Below are positions 1-4,172 of a DNA stretch of 36,279 nucleotides, one piece after another. Where the stretch lies: positions 1 to 36,279 of the IMG/VR virus record IMGVR_UViG_2917393062_000005. The stretch is one strand, 5' to 3'. The notes under the pieces were generated by a model, which saw only the letters and a program-made list of their open reading frames with translations, did not search any database and was not told where the DNA came from. Position 1 is the first letter of the stretch; every line of letters begins with the position of its first letter. Position numbers and translations under genes: made by a program. Source of the stretch: a virus (lineage: Duplodnaviria; Heunggongvirae; Uroviricota; Caudoviricetes).

Positions 1-993
1 TTAACTCAATAACCAGACCAATATCACGATGATGGCGGTCAGCAATATCCACAGGCTGGGGCGCATGGCCATTTCTTGCATCGTGTTAATGAATGGCGTA
101 AAGGGATTGAGCAACGGTTGAATATCTCGCGGTTCAATCCCATTCACCCGCCGTTGATAAAGCTGGTTGAGGATATCCTCGGCCTGTGCGGAAGTCAGGG
201 CTGATTGCTGAGAAAGGCCATATTTTTGCTCAACATAGCTCGATAATACTGTCAACTCGCTGGCATCCAGTGGCTGTTTTAGCGCCATCTGAAGCGACTC
301 CAGCGTCGGTGTATTTTGCTGACTTAACACCTGGCGTGCCTGCAACCAGGTAACCAGGTGGGTAAACATTTTGGCCGGGATCAACTCACCATTTTTTACC
401 CCAGAAAGTTCCAGCATAGATTGCCAAATCTGCTTGCTGGGTTCTCCTGTTGCCGCCGCGAGTTTAGTCACCAGTTGCTTAAGCGTATTGTGTTCTGCCG
501 GTAGCAAAGGGCGATCGGTCGCCTGGCGCTGTTGCGGCTGCGGGATAACCATCTTCCCTTCCTGTAACAGCGTCAGGACGGTTTTTAATTGCTCCGGTGA
601 GAGTTGATTCAGCGGCGTCTGACCAAAGTTATGACGAATGTAATCTGTGACCGCCTGACGATTATTCCCCAGCCGTAAGTACTCGCTCAATTGCGCCAAA
701 AGCTGGCGGACAGAATGGCTTTCTTGCGCGGCCAGTAAACGTTGTGCAAGGTTTTGTTCTGCGGCGGGGAAATTGCGTGAAAGTAACGGTGAATCGCCCG
801 GCAGACCGATGTCGTGCTTTATACCGGCCCACAATTCCGCTCTCTGCTGTTGCGTCAGCGAAGTCACTTTGGTTATCAAACTTTCCAGCACTGTACGTTG
901 CAAGCTGGATAAAGGCTGATTGCCTGCGCCAGACGACAGTTTATCCCCCTGACCCGGTGGTTGCCCAGGAGGGGCGGAAATTGGTTGTATCAT
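1..993 (-). CDS. flk: Host flagellar regulator Flk-like protein, C-terminal membrane anchor; lies outside the prophage
   Basis: 330-aa Gln/Leu-rich protein starting MIQPISAPPGQPPGQG and ending in a hydrophobic segment (SLWILLTAIIVILVWLLS); matches Flk as I recall it (N-terminus, length, C-terminal TM). Recalled, not searched. Confidence 0.55.
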   Translation of the reverse strand: MIQPISAPPGQPPGQGDKLSSGAGNQPLSSLQRTVLESLITKVTSLTQQQRAELWAGIKHDIGLPGDSPLLSRNFPAAEQNLAQRLLAAQESHSVRQLLAQLSEYLRLGNNRQAVTDYIRHNFGQTPLNQLSPEQLKTVLTLLQEGKMVIPQPQQRQATDRPLLPAEHNTLKQLVTKLAAATGEPSKQIWQSMLELSGVKNGELIPAKMFTHLVTWLQARQVLSQQNTPTLESLQMALKQPLDASELTVLSSYVEQKYGLSQQSALTSAQAEDILNQLYQRRVNGIEPRDIQPLLNPFTPFINTMQEMAMRPSLWILLTAIIVILVWLLS

Positions 994-1161
994 TACGTAT
1001 CCTTATACCTGAAATCATCGCAAGTATGCCTGGCCGCGAGATTATGGCACACTTGTCCGGTTAACTCTCGTTCTCATACAGGTACCACAAACGTGAAAAT
1101 CCTTGTTGATGAAAAAAACAAAGATTTAATTTATTGATATAAAAGGATTTGTATCAGCGTA

Positions 1162-1174
1162 TGTCCACGCAGTG
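1162..1174. repeat. Candidate attL core (TGTCCACGCAGTG), left copy of the flanking direct repeat
   Basis: Identical 13-mer at 36252-36264 inside the int 3' end; flanks also match (GCGTA upstream, NCCAC downstream). Sits between host flk and the first phage gene. Confidence 0.5.
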
Positions 1175-1196
1175 ACCACATTTTCGAGAGGTAGAG

Positions 1197-1220
1197 TAAG
1201 CCCGCAACATTGCGGGCTTT
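1197..1220. terminator. Hairpin AAGCCCGC-AACATT-GCGGGCTT next to the methyltransferase stop
   Basis: 8-bp perfect stem seen in sequence; T-rich tract is weak on both strands. Confidence 0.35.
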
Positions 1221-1223
1221 GTC

Positions 1224-2015
1224 TTATGGTTCGATCGCCGTTTTGAGCCGTTGTGTTGCTACATCAAAATAATGATCACTGGTTTCTATACCAATAAATT
1301 TGCGTCCTGCTTTCAGTGCAGCCACACCCGTTGTCCCTGACCCCATAAAAGGATCAAGGACTGTTCCGCCACTATTCACAGTCCTGACCAGTTCCGCCAT
1401 TAGTTCTTCTGGTTTTCCGGTCGGGTGCATTTTCTTTGACGGGATAACCGGGAACGTCATGCAGCCGTCGAACGGTCCCGAAGGCGATTTATCTAAATGG
1501 CCTTTGCTGCCCCAGACGATGTATTCGCACTGATGCCGGAAATATCCGGTATGTGGTGTTCGTGACCCCCTCCCTTTGTTCCACGCAATAATGCCGCGCC
1601 ATGTAAAGCCACTGGCCTGAAACGCATCGGTTAAAGCTGGTAGTTGTCGCCAGTCAGTAAATACCAAGGCATAACCGCCCGGCCTGACTGCGCGGTGTGC
1701 CTGTGCCATCCATAATTGTGTCCAGTAAGCCCACGAACGGGCGTCCATGTTTTCACCCGCGAACCCATCAAAGCGGTGAAGGTTCTCGCCGTTCAGATAT
1801 TTTGCATGGCTGCCCTGGTTGGTGCGTCCGGCCTTGTGTGTCGCGCCCGAACTGTAAGGCGGGTCAGTGATTAAGGCATCAATGCTTTCTGGCTCAATCA
1901 GCGGCAATATTTCCAGCGCATTCCCACGACAGAGCGTGGCATTGTCAGTCTGATAAACCTTAGTGTGTTCCGGTGTATGTGCTGGTTGGTGCTGGATTGC
2001 GATCCCCACGGTCAT
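1224..2015 (-). CDS. Beta-class DNA N6-adenine (or N4-cytosine) methyltransferase
   Basis: Motif IV DPPY near the N-terminus (ITDPPYSSG) precedes motif I FxGxG near the C-terminus (DPFMGSGTTG), which is beta-class order. GAGGAG lies 4 nt upstream of the ATG at 2015. The 5' 56 nt overlap the com-like gene. Confidence 0.9.
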   Translation of the reverse strand: MTVGIAIQHQPAHTPEHTKVYQTDNATLCRGNALEILPLIEPESIDALITDPPYSSGATHKAGRTNQGSHAKYLNGENLHRFDGFAGENMDARSWAYWTQLWMAQAHRAVRPGGYALVFTDWRQLPALTDAFQASGFTWRGIIAWNKGRGSRTPHTGYFRHQCEYIVWGSKGHLDKSPSGPFDGCMTFPVIPSKKMHPTGKPEELMAELVRTVNSGGTVLDPFMGSGTTGVAALKAGRKFIGIETSDHYFDVATQRLKTAIEP

Positions 2016-2157
2016 AACTCCTCATGTGTGTGGGGTGCTCGATGGCTCTCGTTATCTGGTTAAGTGTTTTGCAGCGCGGACATTTTATTTCAATGTAGTG
2101 AAATGAGGCGCGGGCAAGTAGTTTGTTGCAATTTTTGCATCGTACATTTTGCGTCAT
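1960..2157 (-). CDS. com: Mu Com-like zinc-finger protein, putative translational activator of the downstream methyltransferase
   Basis: MTQNVRCKNCNKLLARASFHYIEIKCPRCKTL closely resembles the Mu Com C-x2-C...C-x2-C finger as recalled. ATG at 2157 follows an AGAGG RBS; the ORF track extends to a GTG at 2166. The 3' end overlaps the methyltransferase start as com overlaps mom in Mu. Confidence 0.8.
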   Translation of the reverse strand: MTQNVRCKNCNKLLARASFHYIEIKCPRCKTLNQITRAIEHPTHMRSYDRGDRNPAPTSTYTGTH

Positions 2158-2166
2158 TTGCGGCAC

Positions 2167-2295
2167 CTCTTGTGTGGTTACTGCTGTCGATATGATAACA
2201 AATCGATCGTTTTTATCGATCGGATTTATTGCATCGATCTGTTATGCCTATTGCTTATGTATGGTGCCCTCATTTGTGAGGGTAGCAAAAAGAAA
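2167..2295 (-). promoter_or_regulatory. Putative com-methyltransferase promoter region with three clustered GATC sites
   Basis: GATC at about 2205, 2218 and 2236 within AT-rich sequence just upstream of com; resembles the Dam-sensitive regulatory region of the Mu mom operon. Promoter hexamers not confidently placed. Confidence 0.4.
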
Positions 2296-2327
2296 ACCCG
2301 CAGTTTTTACGCTGCGGGTTTGTTGTT
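2296..2327. terminator. Bidirectional rho-independent terminator between ogr and com
   Basis: CCCGCAG-TTTTTACG-CTGCGGG hairpin flanked by an A-run upstream and a T-rich run downstream, so it can terminate on either strand. Confidence 0.5.
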
Positions 2328-2738
2328 CATGTCTGTGAGATAGGGTGCCGTTTCGACCAACCTTAGCAACCGATTGACGGGGGATTACTCCCCCGTCGCG
2401 GTTATCTTACTTATTACATAGTAAGAATGCCGCAATTTCCGTGCCAGCAAACCTGAATCGTAACTCGCACGGTGATGTGTGGAGGATCCAGATTATCGCT
2501 ACCGCAGTTATGCAAAGTAACAGGGTTTTTAACGGAATTTGCGTCATAACGCTTGTCTCCTGAGAGGAGAGGCGCTAACCTTCTACTTGCGAAGGTAAGA
2601 AGTGTTAGGGCCTCGGTTAAACAAAAATGTTTTCCGGGGCCTTTCCACATCTGGCCTTCGGGTATTCCCTCCGACCATCAGCCGAAAGGCACCCGCGCGT
2701 AATCTATCGCTTTTTTGTTACTCCGGCAATTCTGCCTG

Positions 2739-2999
2739 TTAATTCTGAGATAAAGGCAAACTCATCTGATTGTTTCCCCTGTGTGAGGCTGGCAGCTCAT
2801 GCCACGGGATACCTTCTGATGAGTGAACGCCGGAGGCGTGTTTCGATGTGAATTTATGGAAAGCTTCCAGTGTTGAGAAGCATACGCCGCATTCCAGGTT
2901 GTTACACTGGTAATACTTTTGCCGCACGGTGTTTGAATCATTTTCCGGACGACTGGTGCGGATACGGGCAGATGCGCCACAAAGCGGACAACGGAACAT
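2739..2999 (-). CDS. ogr: Late-gene transcriptional activator, zinc finger (P2 Ogr / 186 B family)
   Basis: MFRCPLCGASARIRTSR...YYQCNNLECGVCF matches the Ogr pattern MFHCPLC...HQCQNVNC recalled from P2. Confidence 0.85.
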   Translation of the reverse strand: MFRCPLCGASARIRTSRPENDSNTVRQKYYQCNNLECGVCFSTLEAFHKFTSKHASGVHSSEGIPWHELPASHRGNNQMSLPLSQN

Positions 3000-3041
3000 A
3001 GCGACCTCCCTTAACGTGGTGCTGTCGCTATTCTAAGTTCC

Positions 3042-4172
3042 TCACTCTGTTTCCGCTATCCATTCCGGGATTTTTGCCTCAAGCTCAAGCTGTGTGGTAA
3101 AGCCGCTGTTATCAATGGTGTGCTCGGCTTTTGCAATAATCCAGTCCTGATTATCAATCTCGCTTTTAAATCCTGTTACCGTGCCATGCATTTCGGGGTA
3201 GAGTTCTGCGCGTCCACGTGCCAGTGTGATGGAGAATGATGCGGCTCCGCGTTGTAACTGCTGCCACTTTGCCGCCGCTGCGCGTCTTGCTGCCTGCTCG
3301 TTCTGATAAGTCTTGCGTAACACAAACACATTGCCTTCCGCGCCTTCCATATAATCACCTTCACGGCTGCTGCTTTTCTCCTTTTTGGGTTTTGGCGGTT
3401 TGCGGCGTTTCACGCTGACTTTTTTCTTTTTCCCGTAATTAAGATCAAGCCAGTAGGCGCGTACCCCCGTATACGCCTCGCGGTCAGCAATACGGAACTG
3501 ATGGCGATCGCCGCTGCTGCGTGTAATGGCGAACGAGGGCAACGGCTGGCCCTGTGCGTTCACGCCACCACCTGGCATGATGAATAACAGATTGCCGCTT
3601 TTTACCGTGGTGATTGCGCCCAGCATTTCCGCCATGCGCGTAAGGAAGGACATGTCGCTTTCTTCGGTCTGGTCGGCGTGGTCGATTTCGATATCCATCA
3701 GCATTTCGCTGATTTGTGGTTTCAGACCATACCGATGAGCGATGGCGGATACCACACGCTCAAGGGTCACATCATGCCATGACACCTCACGTTTAACGTT
3801 AAATTCATCCCGAAAATCTGCGCTTCTGGCTGAAACAGTCAGCCTGTCCGGCGGTCCTTCGTGAGCGATTTCATCAACAATGTAAGTGCCTTTTTCTGTC
3901 AGCGGTTCTCCTTTCCAGCCAATGAGAACCGTCAGGCGCGCGCCCCGTGGCGGTAGCTGCAACTGACCATCCGCATCATCCAGCGTGATGGTGAGCTGGT
4001 CCGCTTCAAATCCCCGGTTGTCGGTCAGTGACAGACTCATCAGGCGCTCTGCCACGCCGGACAGCGTTTCCCCCTCCGCGAGAATATCAAAATCCGGCAT
4101 TTTCACGGGGTCTGTGCTCTGACTGAGCAATTGCATGGTGGTGTCGATCATCTTTCCCTCCCTGTGTGGCAT
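3042..4172 (-). CDS. D: Tail protein D (late control gene D)
   Basis: LMSLSLTDNRGFEADQL, FLTRMAE, lysine-rich basic stretch and SGFTTQLELE all match P2 gpD as recalled. True start may be the downstream Met (MIDTT...). Confidence 0.9.
   Translation of the reverse strand: MPHREGKMIDTTMQLLSQSTDPVKMPDFDILAEGETLSGVAERLMSLSLTDNRGFEADQLTITLDDADGQLQLPPRGARLTVLIGWKGEPLTEKGTYIVDEIAHEGPPDRLTVSARSADFRDEFNVKREVSWHDVTLERVVSAIAHRYGLKPQISEMLMDIEIDHADQTEESDMSFLTRMAEMLGAITTVKSGNLLFIMPGGGVNAQGQPLPSFAITRSSGDRHQFRIADREAYTGVRAYWLDLNYGKKKKVSVKRRKPPKPKKEKSSSREGDYMEGAEGNVFVLRKTYQNEQAARRAAAAKWQQLQRGAASFSITLARGRAELYPEMHGTVTGFKSEIDNQDWIIAKAEHTIDNSGFTTQLELEAKIPEWIAETE

Follow-up and report, generated by a model that had tools for sequence, protein, structure and literature searches.

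A probable Com-controlled DNA methyltransferase cassette with a Mu-type double lock in a P2-like prophage of Escherichia coli

We analysed a 36,279-nucleotide (nt) stretch of viral DNA (IMG/VR record IMGVR_UViG_2917393062_000005, positions 1 to 36,279; hereafter the window), in which a gene for a homologue of the phage Mu protein Com is followed by an orphan DNA methyltransferase gene. By sequence comparison, the window is a P2-like prophage of Escherichia coli and the com-methyltransferase pair is its att-proximal cargo. We consider it likely that the pair and its upstream region form a Com-controlled DNA-modification cassette that operates by the mechanism set out below. As judged by alignment with relatives, Com, its RNA motif, the hairpin at the methyltransferase start and the upstream operator all have homologues elsewhere and are conserved.

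In the proposed mechanism, a sigma-70-type promoter located within an OxyR-type operator with three Dam sites would yield a short com-methyltransferase mRNA. OxyR would bind the operator when its GATC sites are unmethylated and shut the promoter, and methylation by Dam would exclude OxyR. On the mRNA, the methyltransferase start (GUG at 2009, and also AUG at 2015) is predicted to be base paired in a stable hairpin, so that the enzyme would be untranslated by default. Com would bind a GAGNNCC-N3-GAGNNCC motif 5' of the hairpin and open it, and initiation would follow. The enzyme would then methylate DNA, and phage DNA would probably be protected from restriction in new hosts.

Com, its RNA motif and the hairpin at the methyltransferase start

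The com gene (1960-2157, ATG at 2157) encodes a 65-residue CCCC zinc-ribbon protein and, as all features of the cassette, lies on the minus strand. Its Shine-Dalgarno (SD) sequence, GAGGTG, is located at 2169-2164, and the 68-residue open reading frame (ORF) with a GTG start that was called by program begins within this SD. The original prediction of a 65-residue Com zinc-finger protein was borne out by profile searches, in which the product matched Zn_ribbon_Com of Pfam (PF10122; E=1.1e-11, 44.5 bits against a curated cutoff of 22.9) and the PHROG family "gpCom control of modification" (E=2e-17). Besides, it was 60% identical to Mu Com over 42 residues, made up of the zinc ribbon and an AxEHPT stretch after it. 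The cysteines at positions 7, 10, 26 and 29 make up the N-terminal CxxC...CPRC ribbon. Comparison with solved structures gave weak matches to eS27 zinc ribbons alone and was uninformative. Mu Com is known to activate the translation of mom by binding RNA (PMC6483171, PMC3299994), whereas RefSeq/PGAP labels such proteins "Com family DNA-binding transcriptional regulator", a name that is exposed here as misleading.

The target of Com, determined by SELEX and SHAPE, is CC(N)2-3GAG in a hairpin loop; the bipartite consensus is NGAGNNCC(N)2-3GAGNNCCNN, with the core GAGNNCC(N)2-3GAGNNCC, and in Mu the native site reads GAAUGCCUGCGAGCAUCCC (PMC6483171). An exact fit to the bipartite SELEX consensus, GAGAGCCAUCGAGCACC, is present at 2034-2050 on the minus strand and is the predicted Com-binding motif of the cassette. 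It is the single match on both strands of the 36 kb, where 0.09 matches were expected. The motif lies directly 5' of the hairpin described below, and since its last CC belongs to the 5' arm of that hairpin as the first two bases, binding of Com should compete with closure of the hairpin. When 69 distinct Com loci of species-representative genomes were surveyed, the strict motif was found in 31 and a relaxed form in 53, always between the zinc-finger codons and the start of the payload. Furthermore, the predicted 4-bp stem of the motif covaries across the family, with 95% of cells paired, a value reached by none of 500 shuffles, and with both-sided changes at three of the four pairs.

Folding revealed a predicted translation-inhibition hairpin at 2004-2035, in which CCCCAC (2035-2030) pairs with GUGGGG (2009-2004). 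The inner stem, CAUGA/UUAUG, pairs the AUG, so that GUG and AUG are both paired, and the SD sequence GGAG is located in the apical loop. The hairpin alone had a folding energy of -14.3 kcal/mol, in comparison with -9.5 kcal/mol for the translation-inhibition structure (TIS) of Mu, and the 101-nt fold gave z=-2.4. The Mu TIS has the composition GAGCAUCCCAC-GGAGAAACAUU-GUGGG and the window hairpin GAGCACCCCAC-ACACAUGAGGAGUUAUGACC-GUGGGG. On this comparison the window hairpin is a homologue of the Mu TIS, beyond mere resemblance, and with its stability and the perfect Com motif on its 5' side it supplies the occluding structure that had been anticipated at the methyltransferase start.

The hairpin arms are conserved and the loops diverged among Mu and the loci designated L009, L006, L085 and L111. 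Identical arms precede three unrelated payloads, namely a beta-class methyltransferase, a C5 methyltransferase and Mom: the C5-linked cassettes with these arms are L006 (Citrobacter braakii) and L085 (an E. coli prophage beside ybhC), and the Mom-linked ones are Mu, L009 and the L112 and L149 groups. Neisseria-type cassettes have the same layout with other arms (GCAUCC/GGAUGC), and in a comparison within this type a compensatory arm change (GCAUCG/CGAUGC) was seen in a single case, L064 versus L021. A search for covariation of the TIS arms among the enteric cassettes found the arms invariant, so that covariation neither supports nor opposes the pairing there. The com/TIS element (1960-2160), with its conserved and covarying Com-binding hairpin, corresponds to no Rfam family; an Rfam scan of 900-3200 returned sok of the neighbouring locus as the sole match.

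The methyltransferase probably starts at the GUG at 2009-2007, in the 3' arm of the hairpin, and not at the AUG at 2015. This is because L111, a relative with a 71%-identical cassette, has no AUG and keeps the SD sequence and the GUG, and because the SD GGAG is 8 nt from the GUG and merely 2 nt from the AUG. The GUG is also in frame in the C5 methyltransferase and Mom cassettes, and Mom of Mu starts at a GUG within the TIS stem (PMC6483171). The likely start is thereby corrected from ATG to GTG, which gives an enzyme of 261 residues and an overlap with com of 50 nt instead of the 56 nt counted from the ATG. With either overlap, the com/mom geometry of Mu that had been recognized from the 56-nt value stands.

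Two features weigh against opening of the hairpin by Com. First, the hairpin lies wholly within the com ORF, where passing ribosomes could melt it even if Com were not bound. Second, the motif stem of the window lineage is paired at three of four positions, the second pair being an A.A (or C.A) mismatch, so that the motif-presenting hairpin is weaker than in most relatives. An explanation by plain translational coupling, in which ribosomes translating com unwind the hairpin and Com acts elsewhere or as a DNA-binding transcription factor, accords with the 50- to 56-nt overlap, which puts the hairpin (2035-2004) ahead of the com stop codon at 1960, and with the RefSeq name of the protein. Nevertheless, we regard plain coupling as quite improbable, in view of the established role of Mu Com in activating mom translation through RNA (PMC6483171, PMC3299994) and of a motif that is conserved and covarying in the same place in 53 of the 69 loci and that coupling would not need.

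The GATC cluster, the promoter and the timing of expression

The three GATC sites that had been reported within about 35 bp upstream of com were located at 2239-2236, 2221-2218 and 2208-2205 (GATC1 to GATC3), spanning 35 bp with start-to-start spacings of 18 and 13. We designate 2205-2242 on the minus strand a predicted Dam/OxyR-type operator, with three GATCs and OxyR-like half-sites. The case for it rests on conservation, because by count three GATCs in 35 bp are insignificant (P ~0.22 for random placement). The 18/13 spacing is identical in the window, Mu Pmom, the Mom-linked L009, Salmonella L004, phage Chuche, L101 and L111, with diverged intervening sequence, and GATC2 and GATC3 are invariant in an alignment of seven diverged cassettes. 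Compared base by base by eye, the Mu and window operators agree at about 31 of 39 positions (~80%). Of 57 distinct upstream regions in a viral-contig set, all of them closely related to the enteric cassettes, 54 had at least two GATCs, nearly all spaced 13 and/or 18. GATCs were lacking from 62 of the 68 upstream regions in the mostly non-enteric genome set. The idea of an operator inverted relative to that of Mu, which arose from a shared TTATGCC, was rejected by the alignment and the 18/13 spacing, which give the same orientation for both.

The OxyR-like half-sites are ACAGATCGATGCAAT (2242-2228) and ATCGATAAAAACGAT (2220-2206), which match the consensus ATAGnTnnnAnCTAT at 7 and 8 of 10 positions, respectively. 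The GATC pair spaced 13 forms ATCG-N7-CGAT, i.e., ATCGATAAAAACGAT, and its score of 8/10 equals that of the agn43 half-site ATCGTTTATATCGAT. In phage P22, the gtr operator has GATC pairs spaced 13 inside OxyR half-sites (PMC2909390), and a passage of the same paper that cites Hattman and Sun (1997) attributes control of mom expression in Mu to Dam and OxyR. The agn43 operator ATCGATCGTTTATATCGATCGATAAG (L167 318-365, E. coli K-12) is almost identical to the operator of a C5-linked cassette, ACGATCGTTTTTATCGATCGATAAG (L006 ~2955-2990), a likeness that might be due to shared ancestry or to convergent evolution towards OxyR binding.

Natural operator variants also occur. L005 and L108-110 have a deletion between the GATCGAT repeats that leaves one GATC or none and keeps TGTTATCAT, and L092 has a point mutation in GATC2. 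From their sequences, these variants (L005, L108-L110 and L092) could be "unlocked" alleles.

A sigma-70 promoter is predicted at 2192-2219 on the minus strand, with a -35 element TCGATA (2219-2214), a 16-nt spacer and an extended -10 element TGtTATCAT (2200-2192); TCGATA-16-TGtTATCAT was the single promoter-like site within 1000-3100. GATC2 falls in the predicted -35 element and GATC3 in the spacer, and the promoter overlaps the operator. Either TGTTATCAT or TGGTATCAT is retained in diverged relatives (L108-110, L111 and L101), including those that have lost the GATC cluster, and the extended -10 is kept in every P2-type relative, including the operator-deleted L005 and L108-110. An alternative agn43-style promoter upstream of GATC1 was rejected, since no acceptable -10 element is present there.

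Several observations tell on the other side of this reading of the upstream region. At 7 to 8 of 10, the OxyR half-site matches are modest, with similar scores in several overlapping registers; the operator is lost in L108-110 and L005 and is therefore dispensable; and the promoter is called by consensus match alone. The GATC cluster might instead be no OxyR operator, and either confer direct sensitivity to Dam or hemimethylation (IS10- or SeqA-like and linked to replication) or be functionless. The overlap of GATC2 with the predicted -35 element and the position of GATC3 in the spacer would suit such a cluster, as would the insignificant GATC count and the relatives without a cluster. On balance we think this unlikely, given that the spacing is identical to that of Mu Pmom, which is Dam/OxyR-controlled according to the passage of PMC2909390 quoted above, and that the 13-spaced pair, ATCG-N7-CGAT, has the half-site layout of gtr and agn43.

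The late expression that had been suggested for the cassette is unsupported. Neither an Ogr box (TGT-N12-ACA) nor a Mu C box (TTAT-N6-ATAA) was found in 2345-2151, where a TGT-N10-ACA overlapping the -10 element was the sole find, and a tblastn search of the window with Mu C and Mor gave no match below E ~1; the lone promoter-like site is of the sigma-70 type. The lack of a late-promoter element is among the points against the mechanism proposed above. In the alignment, the window and the C5-linked cassettes lack about 33 nt that are present in Mu and L009, and by its position we take this segment to hold the C-dependent Pmom promoter of Mu and L009. Thus, the proposed likeness to the Dam-dependent mom promoter of Mu holds in sequence for the GATC cluster, which is homologous and has the 18/13 spacing, and fails for the promoter itself, which has no C site and overlaps the operator.

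These results bear on the stage at which the enzyme would act. As a lysogenic-conversion function, the methyltransferase would be made in the prophage state, for epigenetic marking of the host or as a restriction "vaccination", and not as a late anti-restriction function. The att-proximal cargo position next to hok/sok and the sigma-70-type promoter-like site without an Ogr or C element are in favour of this. However, tightly controlled prophage methyltransferases (M.EcoGI, M.EcoGII and Hin1523) are silent in lysogens, and the double lock points to an enzyme that is ordinarily not expressed. We consider lysogenic conversion somewhat doubtful, although it is the strongest of the competing explanations. 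The cassette might also be a Dam/OxyR epigenetic ON/OFF switch in lysogens, sharpened by the Com/hairpin lock: each round of replication would set OxyR and Dam in competition, and a heritable subpopulation would express Com and the methyltransferase, giving a phase-variable methylome ("phasevarion") without simple-sequence repeats. Such a switch is conceivable because the agn43-like operator with three Dam sites overlaps a constitutive-type, C-independent promoter, but its probability seems low.

The methyltransferase, its prophage context and the distribution of the cassette

The orphan methyltransferase (1224-2015, minus strand; 263 residues from the ATG at 2015) belongs to the beta class of N6-adenine/N4-cytosine type enzymes. 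It matched N6_N4_Mtase (PF01555) with E=3.4e-33 and PHROG 67 with E=1.4e-81 and showed no similarity to Mom (PF25680), which agrees with the original prediction of a beta-class, non-Mom payload. The motif order is that of the beta class, DPPY at residues 51-54 preceding DPFMGSGTT at approximately 221-229. The closest solved relative is 5hek, a DpnA-like adenine methyltransferase of Helicobacter pylori (E=9e-21), and CcrM is also related. PADLOC assigned a type II methyltransferase and matched methyltransferase models only; indeed, no nuclease gene lies beside the enzyme, whose neighbours are com and the att junction with host flk. The DPPY motif makes adenine N6 the most likely target. A phmmer search with the window enzyme matched none of the Com-linked proteins of Haemophilus and Moraxella (L052, L082, L042 and others) at E<=1e-3, and membership of the Hin1523/Nma1821/Hia5 family was rejected for this lack of similarity. 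The literature examined held nothing on the specificity or expression of the P2-type enzyme, or on a prophage methyltransferase controlled by Dam and OxyR.

The assignment of the window to a P2-like prophage with an att-proximal cassette follows from comparison with the free phage Chuche and from the prophage-host junction near 1096. Most of the window aligns collinearly with Chuche, at 83-97% identity, and the similarity stops at that junction on that side; the methyltransferase and int genes of Chuche point towards attP from opposite sides. Following transcription, the features of the window come in the order ogr, hok/sok, terminator, GATC spacer, com, methyltransferase, GC hairpin, att junction and flk, the last a host gene at 993-1 beyond the junction. 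The GC-rich hairpin (1198-1219), which the terminator scan located 4 nt past the methyltransferase stop codon, has a T-run on the plus strand only; it probably terminates int transcription and possibly also ends the methyltransferase transcript.

Upstream of the cassette, ogr (2999-2739, minus strand; PF04606 match) is separated from com by a hok/sok type I toxin-antitoxin locus (2290-2700), which had gone unreported. On the minus strand, this locus comprises the hok ORF (2547-2407; "Hok/Gef family protein" in RefSeq, with a match to the PHROG family "MokW-like host killing"), sok (2694-2536; Rfam match, E=8e-9) and a mok-like frame overlapping hok (2650-2414). A terminator scan placed a stem-loop at 2294-2321, a short way past the hok ORF and ahead of the com promoter, and the 135-nt spacer between this terminator and com contains the three GATCs. 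The stem-loop had been described as a bidirectional terminator insulating the cassette from ogr. With hok/sok lying between, this description cannot be kept: judging from its position, the stem-loop is most likely the 3' end of the hok mRNA and no dedicated insulator.

The com promoter and gene were present at >=95% identity in 173 of 5426 complete E. coli genomes; FDAARGOS_943, 2015C-3121 and RM14723 are examples of complete genomes with the cassette. As the original prediction had allowed, such enzymes are already annotated: the gene pair is routine in RefSeq, as "Com family DNA-binding transcriptional regulator" and "DNA-methyltransferase", and present in Chuche, whose annotation includes "gpCom control of modification". 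In E. coli E110019 (H9) we observed a second cassette copy with 98.5% identity on a separate 25-kb record (NZ_CP035755.1), which may represent a P2-like element that is extrachromosomal or unplaced. A further copy, 92% identical to the enterobacterial cassette, lies in a Firmicute-labelled assembly (L005, on a contig titled Vagococcus sp. WN89Y), for which contamination or a wrong label seems a likelier explanation than transfer.

When the ORF downstream of Com was checked against Pfam at 63 Com-homologue loci, 46 had a DNA-modification domain (35 Dam-type, 6 PF01555, 3 C5 and 2 Mom), and about 8 more were Hin1523-like. In four loci of Clostridia/Firmicutes (L055, L065, L067 and L075), a Com-like ribbon is followed by proteins of 700-900 residues without a Pfam methyltransferase domain, and the Com-binding motif is absent there; these long proteins are perhaps tail tape-measure proteins, and the zinc ribbon may have another role.

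Across Mu-like and P2-like phages and the E. coli prophage beside ybhC, a shared com/TIS unit was found joined to Mom, to C5 methyltransferases and to beta-class methyltransferases. In the L112-L120 and L121/L148 groups (IMG/VR) and in L085, a near-identical com/TIS (CCCCACA...GUGGGGAAC) is joined to Mom or a C5 methyltransferase. These fusions diverge right past GUGGGGAAC, and the first payload residues, V-G-N, seem to be derived from the cassette and not from the enzyme. We infer that Com and the TIS together make up a portable lock with a recombination joint at the GUGGGG start, a proposal that the sequences support better than they do phase variation.

Comparison with known systems

The closest counterpart is com-mom of Mu, with which the cassette shares a 60% identical Com, the position of the Com-binding motif, the overlap of com and payload, a homologous hairpin with the start codon in its 3' arm, and three GATCs spaced 18/13 in an operator with about 80% of 39 bases in common. 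In contrast to Mu, the payload in the window is a beta-class methyltransferase and not Mom; the ~33-nt segment of the C-dependent promoter, the C box and a C/Mor gene are missing; the operator overlaps the predicted promoter, whereas in Mu it lies upstream of the promoter; and the element is P2-like, whereas Mu is a transposable phage. The Mu double lock, consisting of a Dam/OxyR operator and a Com-opened hairpin, would thus be a module portable across temperate phage types, with payloads that vary among Mom and Dam-type, beta-class and C5 methyltransferases.

In FluMu, Pnm1 and the Haemophilus aegyptius island encoding Hia5, com is followed by a methyltransferase in the place of mom, as stated in a passage of PMC3299994 that cites Morgan (2002). 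The same paper noted putative Com sites at the hin1523 5' end and proposed a Com-type translational lock. These loci resemble the window in having a Com homologue followed by a methyltransferase in the mom position. Their enzymes belong to another family, with no PF01555 match, and are non-specific adenine methyltransferases; furthermore, the loci are without a GATC cluster, and the phage type differs. The novelty originally claimed for the coupled regulation fails, because Com-controlled methyltransferases had been published for FluMu, Pnm1 and Hia5, as the cited passage of PMC3299994 indicates, and because the pair is annotated in RefSeq and Chuche. What may be new is the C-independent layout, with an agn43-like operator overlapping the promoter, in P2-like phages and the ybhC-side prophage, and possibly also the recombination joint of cassette and payload at the GUGGGG start; in the literature examined we found nothing on either.

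M.EcoGI and M.EcoGII, which are silent in lysogens (PMC5778455), are likewise beta-class PF01555 enzymes encoded on E. coli prophages, but they have 349 residues and reside on other prophages; a com gene is not mentioned for them in PMC5778455. A cassette of the kind described here would explain why such prophage methyltransferases may stay silent in methylome surveys.

Finally, the putative operator resembles those of agn43 in E. coli and gtr in P22 and Salmonella, in that a GATC pair spaced 13 lies within an ATCG-N7-CGAT OxyR-type half-site and the operator overlaps or abuts the promoter. agn43 also has three GATCs, spaced 19/13 in comparison with 18/13 in the window. The genes downstream differ, being a translational activator and a methyltransferase in the window and a surface-structure gene in agn43 and gtr. 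Phase-variable expression of the C-independent version of the cassette in lysogens would be the more interesting possibility.

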